Shown here: positions 26,015 through 35,203 of the stretch, piece after piece
How the letters are laid out: each line of letters begins with the position of its first letter
Position numbering within the stretch: position 1 is the first letter of the stretch
From: Mytilus edulis
Taxonomy: Eukaryota
Assembly: GCF_963676685.1 (NCBI RefSeq)
Contig: NC_092347.1
Coordinates: forward strand, 80,910,001 to 80,974,000
Length of the DNA: 64,000 bases
Direction: 5' to 3'
The notes under the pieces: model-generated
The model's database searches: none
The model's input: the letters and a program-made list of their open reading frames with translations, nothing else
Told to the model about the DNA's origin: nothing
Translations under genes and position numbers: made by a program

Positions 26015-26860
26015 ATATCACCAAGGAAAAATGAGGTATTTTTCCTTGGCAATAATTTTGAATAGTTTTATATAAATAAATCTATATTTTCTTTTATTAC
26101 TTTAAGGTTAAATCAAAGTGTTAGAATATCAACATGTCAAAACTGAGTAAGGGCTTATTGCAAATATTTCACATCTTAATTTAAAGATAATATAATTAGA
26201 CTGTCTTTCTTAATTCTGGATTAGGGATTAAGGTAAACTTGAAGTAAAGCTATTAGCACCTTCAAAATATTACAATAAGACTGTGATTAGCTATTTCCTA
26301 TTTAAGATAAGATACAATAGAAGTGTTATATTTTAGTTACATAATTTTATACTTTAACTAAGATTGTAATTGATAAAAAGGTATCTAAGGGACCATATCT
26401 TAAATAGTAAGGTTTAAAATAATTACCCTCCCCTTTTTGAGGAGTTATGTATTTTGATTGGTCAAGTAACTTTGATATACATTAAATGATTATAGAGATT
26501 TAGGGGAGATGCGTTTTAGAAAGGGACTTGGATATATTAATTTGATGTAATTTAGAAGAATGGATAATTATAGGCTTTGTCACATCATGGTGACTTAGTT
26601 GCATATTCGTATACCTGTATTACTTGTGTTGTAAATATGAATGCTTTATCTATTCGAGAATAATTAATATACCATCATTGAATTTAGTGTTTTATTGACT
26701 TCTTGTGCGTTATACAAAGAAAACCAGACAATGCGTTACCTATGCTCTACCATCATTATTCAGAGTTAGTTCCCCTACAAAATAATATGATCAGAACTGG
26801 GTCGCAGAATGTCAGCTAGTTCCCCCACTTATTGACATGCGATCCACTCCGGCCATAGAG
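26015..26860 (+). repeat. 5' LTR
   Basis: 846-bp direct repeat of 33841-34685, followed by TGGTTCGAGGACCCGG. Confidence 0.93.
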
Positions 26861-27148
26861 TGGTTCGAGGACCCGGCTTCGTTTACCGTGAAGAAAATGT
26901 TTTCTGAACTTTAAGGACTAGTGCCATAATACAGAAGATCTCCAGGACAGGAAACCGTAAAGGAATTTAGCTATTTACTTATTCCTTGGTAACTGCAGAG
27001 GGTGAGTACAGCTTACTATTTAAATCACCTGTGACACTTTTATATATAATAATTATTTATTTTATTCAAAATATAATTAGGTCAAATAAGTGATAAGGCT
27101 TATATTTCTCATCCCTCCTGAAGTCTAATATAATATTATATTATTAAA

Positions 27149-30100
27149 ATGGCAAAGTCTTTTGAGTTCAAAAACAACTTCATGGCTAATGTAGAAACAG
27201 CCATTGTAAATAGTAATAAAATAAGGGTTAAGTTAGGTAATATTTATATTAATGCTCTTGTAGACTCTGGTGCTACAATTTCTGTTATTAATGAGCAACT
27301 GCTTAGAAGGGCATTTTATAAGAAAGAATTACCAGTCATAAGTAATACAGATTTACATGAAATTCGTGGAGTATGCAATACTGTACATAATGTTCAAGGG
27401 AAAATTGATTTGGACATAGATGTCAATGAATTAGTTATGCCCTTTTCTTTTTATATTTTAAGAGATGTTGGATTTCACTTAATCCTTGGTCAAGATTTTT
27501 TGACTACTCATAAGGCAAACATTAATTTTTCAAATGGTTGTGTATCATTTCATAATGATTTTATTATTGCTGCCTTAGAGTCTGGAAAGAATTTAGAAAG
27601 ATATTTCATAGCAAACACAAACAAAACGCTTACTTTAAAAGCATATACAGAGAATGATATACAACTTTCTATCAATAAATTCCCAACAAATACAACGGTG
27701 CTGTTAGAGCCACACGATAATTTGATAAACAGACAAATATTAGGTTCAAATTGTCTCAGTGTAGTTAAAAATGCAAAAGTTTACTACAGAGTGCTAAATC
27801 CAACAAACGAAGACATTGTTATAAAGGCAAATTCACCAATTTCAAAAGTTTGGAAATCACCCACAAAACCAATCTGTGCCTTAGATAACAATTCAAAATC
27901 TGATGTTCAATTTCAAGACCCCATTAAAGAGGCATTAAATCTTAATGTTACAATTGATTCTGATAACATTACAAAAGAACAACACCAAACACTTCTGATG
28001 TTAATAGGAACAAATAGGAATGTTTTCGCAAAAGATGCATCTGAATTAGGCAAAACAGACTTGCATTATCACAATATTGAAACGACAAATGAAGCACCAG
28101 TAAGGTCTAAACGGTTTCAATATTCACCGAAAATGCAAGAAGTTATAGAGACACAAATCAAAAATCTCAAAGAAAATGACATCATAGAAGAATCAATGTC
28201 TCCTTACCATAGTAGTGTAATCTTAGTGAAAAAACCAAACAATACATACAGATTCGTTTTAGACTTTCGAAAATTGAATGAGGTCACTAAAAAAGTTTCT
28301 TTCTCAATTCCTAAAATAGAAGAGGTTGTTGATACAGTTGGCTATTCAAGAGCTAAAATTTTCAGTTCGCTTGATCTTGCTAGTGGATTTCATCAGGTGC
28401 CACTTGATGAACAGTCAAAACACAAAACAGCATTCATGACACCACAAGGTCAATACCAATTTAAAAGATTGTGTTTTGGTTTAACAAATGCACCTGCAAC
28501 ATTTCAAATGTTAATGACTAAAGTCTTACAAGAACTAAATTGGAAGGTTGCACTTATATACATAGATGACATATTAGTTTTTTCCAAAAACTTTGATGAA
28601 CATCTTGAACATTTAAATCTGGTATTTCAAAAATTAAAACAAGCAAAATTAACTTTACAACCCTCCAAATGTCATTTTGCGGCAAAACAAGTAAAATATT
28701 TAGGACACATTATCTCTGAACATGGCATACAGGTTGACAAATCTAAAACAGTTGCAGTTTCTGAATATCCCATACCAAAATCAGTCAAACAATTACGTAG
28801 CTTTCTGGGTATGTGCAACTATTACAGAAAATTTATTCAAAACTACAGTAAAATTTGTTCCTCACTTACAACACTATTAAAGAAAGATGTAAAATTTGAT
28901 TGGACAACAAAACAAGATGATGCATTTAATACATTAAAACAAAAACTGACAACTGCACCAATTCTTGCATTTCCTGACTTTGAAAAAGAATTTTTCCTGT
29001 CAATAGATGCGTCAGATTCAGCAATTGGTTATGTATTAGGTCAAAAAGATCATGAAGGACTAGAAAAAACTATTGCATATGGAGGTAGAGGTTTAAGGGA
29101 TCAGGAAAAACGTTGGCATATCAATCACAAAGAAGGGTTAGCTCTGATTGAGGCTATAAAAACTTTCAAATCGTATATAGCAAACAATCAGTTTACAGTT
29201 TACACTGATAGTATAACCGTGCGATGGCTAAATAATTCAAAAGACGCTACTGGACGACTTGGGAGGTGGTCATTGTTTCTACAGCAGTACACTTTTGACA
29301 TTGTTCATAGACCAGGTACCCAGAACCAAAATGCTGATGCATTGTCACGAAGAGATTATCCGGTAGATAGCCAAGACAAGGAATATCAATCTGATGATGA
29401 CCTTCCAGAGATTGGTTCATTACATGCTGAAAGAAAGGACCATATAGCAGTCACCTTTGAATTTGGCTGGGAAAACAGCATCCGGATTCCTGAAGTTCTA
29501 GCTATTGATGAGGCCCAAGTAAGAGATCCTGATGAGATGTTACCAACACGCCAAACCTTGTACCAGCTGCAAAGAAACTGTCAAGACTTCAAACCAATTT
29601 TTGACCACAAACTTAAAGGACTTGTTCCGGATGAGGTTCAGAAGGCAAGATCTCTTGTTGCAAAGGCATATCATTATGAGATTATTGATGGCATTTTGTA
29701 CCATATGGTTTCTGAGAATTCAAGAAAACTTCCTCCAGGCCACAATTTCGTAAAACAACTTTGTGTTCCAGCTGTCCTGCGCCGTGATGTGATGTTATGT
29801 TACCATGATAGTAAAATGGCAGCTCATCCAGGTGTTGAAAGAAACCATGCATCCTTACGGTTAAAGTACTATTGGCCAAATATGTATTCCGACATAGACA
29901 AGTACGTAAGAACATGTGAACAGTGCCAGAAATCAAAGAACTCTAAACATCAGAGACCAGTACCCCTTACTCCTTTGCCAATTGAAAATGTGTTTGAAAG
30001 AATGCATATGGATTTTTTAGAACTATCAACTACACCTGACAAACACAGATACTTGCTACTAGTGGTTGACAGTTACTCGAAATGGTGTGAGGCGTTTCCT

Positions 30101-33839: not shown

Positions 33840-33840
33840 T

Positions 33841-34685
33841 ATATCACCAAGGAAAAATGAGGTATTTTTCCTTGGCAATAATTTTGAATAGTTTTATATA
33901 AATAAATCTATATTTTCTTTATTACTTTAAGGTTAAATTAAAGTGTTAGAATATCAACATGTCAAAACTGAGTAAGGGCTTATTGCAAATATTTCACATC
34001 TTAATTTAAAGATAATATAATTAGACTGTCTTTCTTAATTCTGGATTAGGGATTAAGGTAAACTTGAAGTAAAGCTATTAGCACCTTCAAAATATTACAA
34101 TAAGACTGTGATTAGCTATTTCCTATTTAAGATAAGATACAATAGAAGTGTTATATTTTAGTTTCATAATTTTATACTTTAACTAAGATTGTAATTGATA
34201 AAAAGGTATCTAAGGGACCATATCTTAAATAGTAAGGTTTAAAATAATTACCCTCCCCTTTTTGAGGAGTTATGTATTTTGATTGGTCAAGTAACTTTGA
34301 TATACATTAAATGATTATAGAGATTTAGGGGAGATGCGTTTTAGAAAGGGACTTGGATATATTAATTTGATGTAATTTAGAAGAATGGATAATTATAGGC
34401 TTTGTCACATCATGGTGACTTAGTTGCATATTCGTATACCTGTATTACTTGTGTTGTAAATATGAATGCTTTATCTATTCGAGAATAATTAATATACCAT
34501 CATTGAATTTAGTGTTTTATTGACTTCTTGTGCGTTATACAAAGAAAACCAGACAATGCGTTACCTATGCTCTACCATCATTATTCAGAGTTAGTTCCCC
34601 TACAAAATAATATGATCAGAACTGGGTCGCAGAATGTCAGCTAGTTCCCCCACTTATTGACATGCGATCCACTCCGGTCATAGAG
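33841..34685 (+). repeat. 3' LTR
   Basis: 845-bp direct repeat of 26015-26860, preceded by the purine run GGAAGAAGGAAGAG. Confidence 0.93.
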
Positions 34686-35203
34686 ACGCTTTATATTTAG
34701 GACTATCAACAAAATAGTAAAATAGCAAGACATTTCAGCGTGTGCACTCTTGTTGGGTTTTGGTCTCTCTTTTTTTTTTATACTGTATGCAATAGGTCTA
34801 CAATAGTTGGGTGTATGGGATGACGGTAAGGTGTACATACATGTCCAACTGACAGGTTTCATCTGACTTTGACATTGTTCAGTGGTAAAAGTTAAGTTTT
34901 TGTGTGTTTGTCTGATTTTCTAATACTTTATGCATTAGGTCTACTATTCTTGGTGTGTGGAAATATTTTATGATGTACATGTCAGTCTCGCAGGTTTTAT
35001 TTGACCTTGACCTCTTTTCACTTCTCATTGCTCAGTGTTGAGTTTTGGTCTGTTTTTCTTAAACTATAAGCAACGAGTTTAGTTTAAACAGATTTTATTT
35101 GCTGAATTAAATCAAAATGGATTAGATACAAGTAAACCATACTTAAGAAGTCTAAAATACTCCTTGAAAGCTTCAAGGGTACAGGGGAATCCATGTTATT
35201 ATA

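Follow-up and report, generated by a model that had tools for sequence, protein, structure and literature searches.

The stretch analysed here, referred to as the window, is a 64,000-nt segment of the Mytilus edulis genome (NC_092347.1, positions 80,910,001 to 80,974,000) lying on contig C4 of a 1.37-Gb assembly, from which all counts below are taken. It contains a Ty3/Gypsy long terminal repeat (LTR) retrotransposon, at positions 26016-34682, that interrupts an abundant host repeat. We describe at this focal element, and at related families elsewhere in the genome, a departure from the usual target site duplication (TSD) in which one copy of the 4-bp target is replaced, in register, by bases of the element's own end spacer.

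All features given for the focal element lie on the forward strand. Its 5′ LTR (26016-26857, 842 bp, TATCACC...GGCCATA) and 3′ LTR (33842-34682, 841 bp, TATCACC...GGTCATA) differ by three substitutions and one indel over an 846-column alignment, with one mismatch at 26853, four bases from the LTR end, and sister copies have the same termini. GAG directly follows both LTRs (26858-26860 and 34683-34685); after the 5′ LTR it is succeeded by TGG, the start of a primer binding site (PBS)-like segment read from the sequence (26861-26878), and after the 3′ LTR by AC. This U5-side spacer, a putative cDNA end overhang, is identical in 9/9 PBS-bearing copies, and the polypurine tract (PPT) with the U3-side spacer (33826-33841, GTA at 33839-33841) is likewise the same in sisters. 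Pol occupies 27149-30703 (protease, reverse transcriptase (RT), RNase H and integrase with HHCC and DDE core) with no gag upstream, and continues in another frame at 30673-31833 with the integrase C-terminus and a chromodomain-like tail. The two direct LTRs, the PPT and the Pfam order of protease, RT, RNase H and integrase are those of Ty3/Gypsy elements. A frame change near 30616-30691 and a stop at 31447-31449 disrupt the focal pol, with the integrase core remaining open; the entire pol is open in 7 of 8 sisters.

The original prediction, made from the letters of the window, described the LTRs correctly in both identity (∼99.5%) and termini, and its reading of GAG as a retained cDNA end spacer also holds. 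GAG follows the right-hand end at 3 of 21 right junctions of the focal family, which is above chance (binomial P 0.0009). As for its description of the copy as young, the focal pair is the most diverged among the eight family copies measured, the seven sisters being 99.87-100% identical.

Termini of the focal family and its relatives

We designate the focal family A and its relatives B-H, the latter found with an RT/RNase H search in which the best 96 of 2958 candidates were scored. Searching with the family A LTR gave 65 matches (40 scored of 46 candidates), and two end patterns yielded 32 starts and 26 ends. All family A copies with a located end share the same LTR boundaries, TA..TA and not TG..CA. 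Perfect 4-bp TSDs flank seven of the eight full-length sisters (TATA, CTTG, AATA, CTTC, AATG, CATG and GATG), the eighth reading TATT/ATTG, and 11 of 18 family A pairs overall, a length within the 4-6 bp that integrases duplicate. Families B, E and F also have TA..TA ends with 4-bp TSDs as a rule, and C, D and H have CA right ends. Because TA..TA ends are the norm in family A, occur there with TSDs and are found alike in B, E and F, they represent the ordinary integrase chemistry of this lineage. Two further family A copies end in GAG followed by the fourth target base: L003 (TTTA/GAGA) and L043 (TCAA/GAGA).

Several rearranged copies were encountered. A perfect TAAC TSD flanks the family B element that lies within the 3′ LTR of a family A copy at L038 (C4:3757800-3767600). 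L192 (C7:73826274-73826951) consists of two tandem 5′ LTRs joined by a 14-nt PBS/PPT remnant, L190 is a three-LTR tandem, L088 has an interior inverted relative to its LTRs and L254, on a small contig, has head-to-head LTR starts.

Insertion register at the focal site

The host repeat into which the element is inserted is real, as the original prediction had supposed, and abundant; the best 40 of 3340 candidates were scored. It has 147-bp internal units and a fixed end, is found at 16600-17515, 25359-26015 and 34687-35075 of the window, and resembles Helentron/HINE-type elements. Its left part runs up to the element (25359-26015) and its right part (34687-34755, the repeat also being listed to 35075) is collinear with the left. 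Uninterrupted copies read TAGTTGTAGTAAAGCTTTATATTTAGG, or GTAGTAA-A-GCTTT, and of 26 relatives parsed from 29 loci, 19 have A after GTAA and one has T. At the left copy of the target, GTAA at 26012-26015, relatives read GTAGTAAAGCTT. Where empty relatives have GTAA-AGCTT, a normal insertion would give GTAA-element-GTAA-AGCTT, and the filled site reads GTAA-element-GAGA-CGCTT, which is of equal length. Exactly four bases thus occupy the place of the second target copy (34683-34686), of which the first three are the spacer GAG and the fourth, A, is the target base retained. At the left end, host GTAGTAA joins TATCACC directly, with at most one ambiguous base, and the GTA found before the 3′ LTR is missing; the left end was therefore trimmed.

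Several claims of the original prediction are changed by this register. A literal 4-6-bp duplication is indeed lacking (GTAA on the left, GAGA on the right), but the 4-bp spacing is kept and the right copy reads as overwritten, so that, contrary to what had been stated, the flanks do not rejoin directly but with four bases added. Of the two bases (AC) then left unexplained, A is accounted for as the fourth target base, and C at 34687, where most host-repeat relatives have A, is not. An older substitution in the host repeat is plausible there, because the focal repeat copy is ∼12-18% diverged from its relatives. The exact empty allele, the search for which had been proposed, found no match in the assembly, and four of the 24 public runs listed, all of them contigs, aligned to the left flank and 5′ LTR were swamped by host-repeat matches and showed neither the junction nor an empty allele.

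The insertion had been attributed to end joining of unprocessed linear cDNA into a break, independently of integrase. This account has in its favour the retained GAG, the lack of a literal TSD, a target atypical for family A and the one unexplained base, and we now regard it as very improbable. Under it both ends should be untrimmed and the register loose, whereas the left end lacks the U3 spacer and the register is exactly +4, as in an integrase stagger; the integrase core is open in the focal copy, as pol is in most sisters; TA..TA ends with TSDs are the family norm; and the same pattern, at either end, recurs in 26 of 109 junction pairs across five families, as set out below. The other option offered at the time, a different end chemistry in this lineage, holds for the termini, and tabulation of the sisters did not reveal ordinary TG..CA ends.

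Imperfect duplications across five families

All pairable left and right junctions were tabulated for families A-D and then for family E. One PBS variant, two tandem halves, one inverted-interior copy and two duplicates were dropped before the count in A-D, to which L043, the outer pair of the tandem and L086 were added by hand; 14 unpaired ends in family E, plus one duplicate, lie outside the count. A pair was considered explained if all its mismatches fell in an LTR-contiguous run equal to the bases beside the internal side of the other LTR, and the null consisted of random substitutions on each family's own TSDs in 20,000 trials (an earlier null, with a mean of 16.4, held one observed side, which inflated it, and was not used). 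Of 109 pairs in families A-E, 75 were perfect and 34 imperfect, and the family's own end spacer accounts for 26 of the imperfect pairs. Families A-D contributed 84 pairs, 54 perfect and 30 imperfect, with 22 of the latter explained against a null mean of 5.4 and a maximum of 14. Among pairs with at least two mismatches in these four families, 12 of 16 were explained (null mean 1.5). Swapping the spacers between ends explained three pairs, and substituting the spacers of other families explained 10, 11 and 4. Family E, examined last and largely but not wholly held out (case L115 had been seen beforehand), gave 25 pairs, 21 of them perfect, and all four imperfect pairs were explained (null mean 1.0, P 0.001).

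For eight of the 30 imperfect pairs in A-D an uninterrupted paralogue was available in the loci retrieved, against 21 without one and one that was uninformative. At all eight verified sites there are four bases; one junction matches the target, and the other departs from it in the direction of the spacer. The right-end changes are TAAC to GATA, GATA to GATT, TAGT to CGGT, ATTC to CTTC, the focal GTAA to GAGA and, after a one-base alignment offset, CATG to GATG; those at the left end are TTAT to TGTA and TAAC to TATA. In two insertions both ends are overwritten (CTGG/CGAG and TATA/GATG). Imperfect pairs also flank copies whose LTRs are 100% identical (L093, L099, L181 and L182), and age therefore does not explain them. 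T occupies target position 3 in 11/11 perfect family A TSDs and A does so in three of four overwritten targets; judged post hoc, overwriting may be commoner at poorly matched targets.

The verified sites bear on an explanation that yields an identical sequence at the focal site, namely that an untrimmed U5 end was joined nearer the other end (a 1-bp stagger plus GAG), or that only the U3 end was joined, the untrimmed U5 end being attached by host repair. Uncoordinated joining is known in retroviruses, including a 273-bp duplication with a damaged end (PMC2857682). Nevertheless, we consider this explanation unlikely, as the total would have to be exactly four for spacers of 2, 3 and 4 nt, at both ends, in 8/8 verified cases, and a fixed stagger with an untrimmed end should leave the spacer followed by a complete TSD. 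Such a layout is rejected at L093, where GATA stands in place of TAAC in register; L096 and L099, which are without an empty-site relative, can be read as spacer plus full TSD.

The lengths of the overwrites are family-specific: the longest at the right end is 3, 2, 4 and 4 nt in families A, B, C and D, which is the distance from LTR to TGG in each. Later gene conversion or template switching between LTR junctions could in principle have copied PBS- or PPT-side bases over the TSD, a donor sequence being available at the other LTR, yet this seems a remote prospect given that the tracts stop at or before the spacer length without running into the PBS, and that a nearby LTR difference in the focal copy (26853) was not homogenised. 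Two family D tracts go on with one T, which is compatible with either overhang or conversion. The least credible account of all is an assembly error, a recombination event involving two insertions, or random mutation of the TSD: the flanks are a high-copy repeat and the junctions are as assembled, but the flanks are collinear to the base and such events would not reproduce family-specific spacers.

How the spacer may be sealed in

Termini, the TSD length of the family, register, and which and how many bases were replaced are direct observations, and on them we consider it likely that the focal copy is a normal integrase insertion in which the cDNA 5′ overhang was ligated instead of trimmed, overwriting the right TSD copy. 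By established chemistry, integrase would remove the spacer from the 3′ strand only and join both TA-3′ ends 4 bp apart, so that at each end a 5′ overhang of 2-4 nt would lie opposite a gap of 4 nt. The step that is new here would follow, with fill-in stopping at the overhang and ligase sealing the overhang in. At the focal site this would comprise 1 filled nucleotide and a 3-nt overhang, turning GTAA into GAG plus A. The resulting short mismatch could be fixed either way by replication or mismatch repair, and in the focal case the heteroduplex would have been fixed as element sequence; partial overwrites may represent partly trimmed flaps. Overhang ligation accounts for the register, the contiguity of the changes with the LTR, their family-specific length and the occurrence of either-end and both-end cases.

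A number of observations tell against this interpretation. Flap ligation and the joining of an untrimmed end at a shortened stagger cannot be told apart by sequence alone, and the evidence comes from one assembly only, with paralogous repeats in place of a true empty allele and junctions taken as assembled. At the focal site the C at 34687 is unexplained and the target GTAA breaks the position 3 pattern of family A, and the fifth base is changed in two of the eight verified cases (the focal site and L123/L124). Furthermore, 8 of the 30 imperfect pairs in families A-D are unexplained, and 5 of the 22 explained pairs are AATA/GATA pairs of family C, in which target preference and spacers are alike.

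A pol-only clade

In families A-D (L031-L037 and L081-L099; 26861-27148 of the window) pol is long, and intact in many of the young copies, and gag is lacking. Each has a single open reading frame (ORF) starting 30-70 residues before the protease motif, ∼30 in family A, and the longest open frame outside pol, in one copy of each family, is 71-87 aa (71 aa in sister L033); family A thus does not have the composition of an autonomous gag-pol Gypsy element. Comparison of the gag regions of E, F and G with the non-pol frames of A-D gave nothing better than an E value of 0.36. The four families are ∼53-62% identical in RT/RNase H and group together with moderate support (85/87) in a tree of 19 copies, all from this genome. 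We considered whether gag might be hidden in the pol tail and rejected this, as the tail aligns to chromodomain regions. Pfam Chromo is found in relatives E and G and not in A-D, whose tails align to that region and extend 150-180 aa beyond it, an extension missing in gag-bearing relatives; the tail gave no Atlas hit.

The capsid of A-D is probably borrowed, judging by shared termini: E has the GGTCATA end of A, and F has both terminal heptamers of B. A search for a gag-only partner in 11 short two-LTR elements from families B-D revealed no gag-like frame, and 9/9 exact matches to the family A PBS belong to pol copies, a further hit with one mismatch lying outside that set. A pattern made from the family A PBS matched no tRNA gene, the Gly, Thr, Lys and Met tRNAs sampled did not fit the PBS-like segments of A-D, and no LTR-PBS pairing suggestive of self-priming stood clearly above shuffles in A-D. 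The PBS-like segments of these families (after the 5′ LTR in L033, L086, L093 and L099; L186-L191) have TGG...GACCC/GGCCC in common and vary within a family. Long tandem tRNA gene arrays were also noted at L261-L290 (C7:89.82 Mb and C10:19.28 Mb), with Thr-Gly and Lys-Lys-Met units. In a related Gypsy copy (L100:660-2753), the strand opposite pol carries a 698-aa ORF with an RSKR-GLF motif, which we take to recall an envelope cleavage site and fusion peptide.

Relation to known systems

In retroviral and Ty3/Gypsy integration, 3′ processing and staggered joining leave the 5′ overhang unpaired, and it is normally cut away (PMC5408687, PMC11054761). The elements described here resemble that scheme in 3′ processing, staggered joining, a 4-bp duplication and 5′ overhangs left for host repair, and depart from it in that removal of the unpaired 5′ nucleotides is apparently skipped in about one quarter of insertions, in having TA and not CA ends, and in overhangs of 2-4 nt. 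The nearest precedent found is a single site of XMRV (a virus related to xenotropic murine leukemia virus), clone C-8, one junction among 15 with the same kind of retained base, for which the same speculation was made and the mechanism left open (Kim et al. 2010, PMC2857682). That case concerns one base at 1/15 sites, whereas here 26/109 pairs show 1-4 bases, at both ends, with the length set by the family spacer.

Non-canonical termini have been described for AtRE1 (TA..TA), TARE1 (TA..CA) and Tos17 (TG..GA) (bioRxiv 10.1101/137141), for errantiviruses (AGT..AnT; PMC5408687) and for Troyka (CG..CG with a 3-bp TSD; PMC12440569), and the families studied here are similar in having lineage-specific terminal dinucleotides with a regular TSD. 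Family A does not belong to Troyka, having neither its termini nor its TSD length, and the plant survey (10.1101/137141) concerns mostly Copia elements, in contrast to the animal Gypsy-type families with TA..TA ends and 4-bp TSDs reported here. An animal Gypsy clade bearing a chromodomain after integrase has been described (PMC13524379), and further context is given in PMC6238403, PMC13524379 and PMC10886601. Outside subscription papers, Repbase and supplements, we found no description of spacer-overwritten TSDs as a pattern, nor of a gag-less Gypsy clade; Repbase, subscription papers or supplements may already record TA..TA ends or a missing gag.

At non-TTAA sites, piggyBac seals an element-borne 4-nt overhang into the target gap and can thereby replace target bases. 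A bolder and distinctly tentative proposal is that overhang ligation is a regular finishing route in the Gypsy lineage studied here, a sticky-end integration akin to that of piggyBac, where overhangs of 3-4 nt correspond to the favoured target so that little fill-in is often needed, and an imperfect match leaves the target rewritten; it further holds that four of the families have lost gag entirely and either depend on a borrowed capsid or manage with none. Families A, C and D prefer N-A-T-N targets and their spacers carry those bases, and target preference is weak in B and E, which have 2-nt spacers. piggyBac is, by comparison, a DNA transposon whose chemistry involves hairpins and whose target is fixed, and any resemblance would be one of outline. 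In the element BARE-2 pol is kept and gag function is lost, with dependence on BARE-1, whereas here four families, forming one moderately supported clade, are without any trace of gag.

Other features of the window

Long terminal inverted repeat elements resembling MITEs (miniature transposable elements with inverted repeats) lie at 4403-4851 with 13539-13987, at 35204-36416 and at 43155-45790 (155, 90 and 48 nt). Tandem arrays occupy 45800-48300, with mixed 46/77/81/165/257-bp units, and 59600-61650, with four 501-bp units.

Implications

Tools demanding a perfect TSD and TG..CA ends would miss these elements, and it would be a mistake to infer integrase-independent insertion from the lack of a TSD. 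A separate question, raised by the presence of young intact copies in a pol-only clade, is the source of its capsid. The fate of the 5′ flap in the repair of retroviral and LTR element integration has been argued mostly from cell extracts and knockouts, and the junctions described here would provide a germline record in which the flap has often been sealed in, with a countable readout. Overhang ligation also makes a sharp prediction, that two junction alleles can arise from a single insertion, and would allow the cDNA overhang length of each family to be read straight from the genome.

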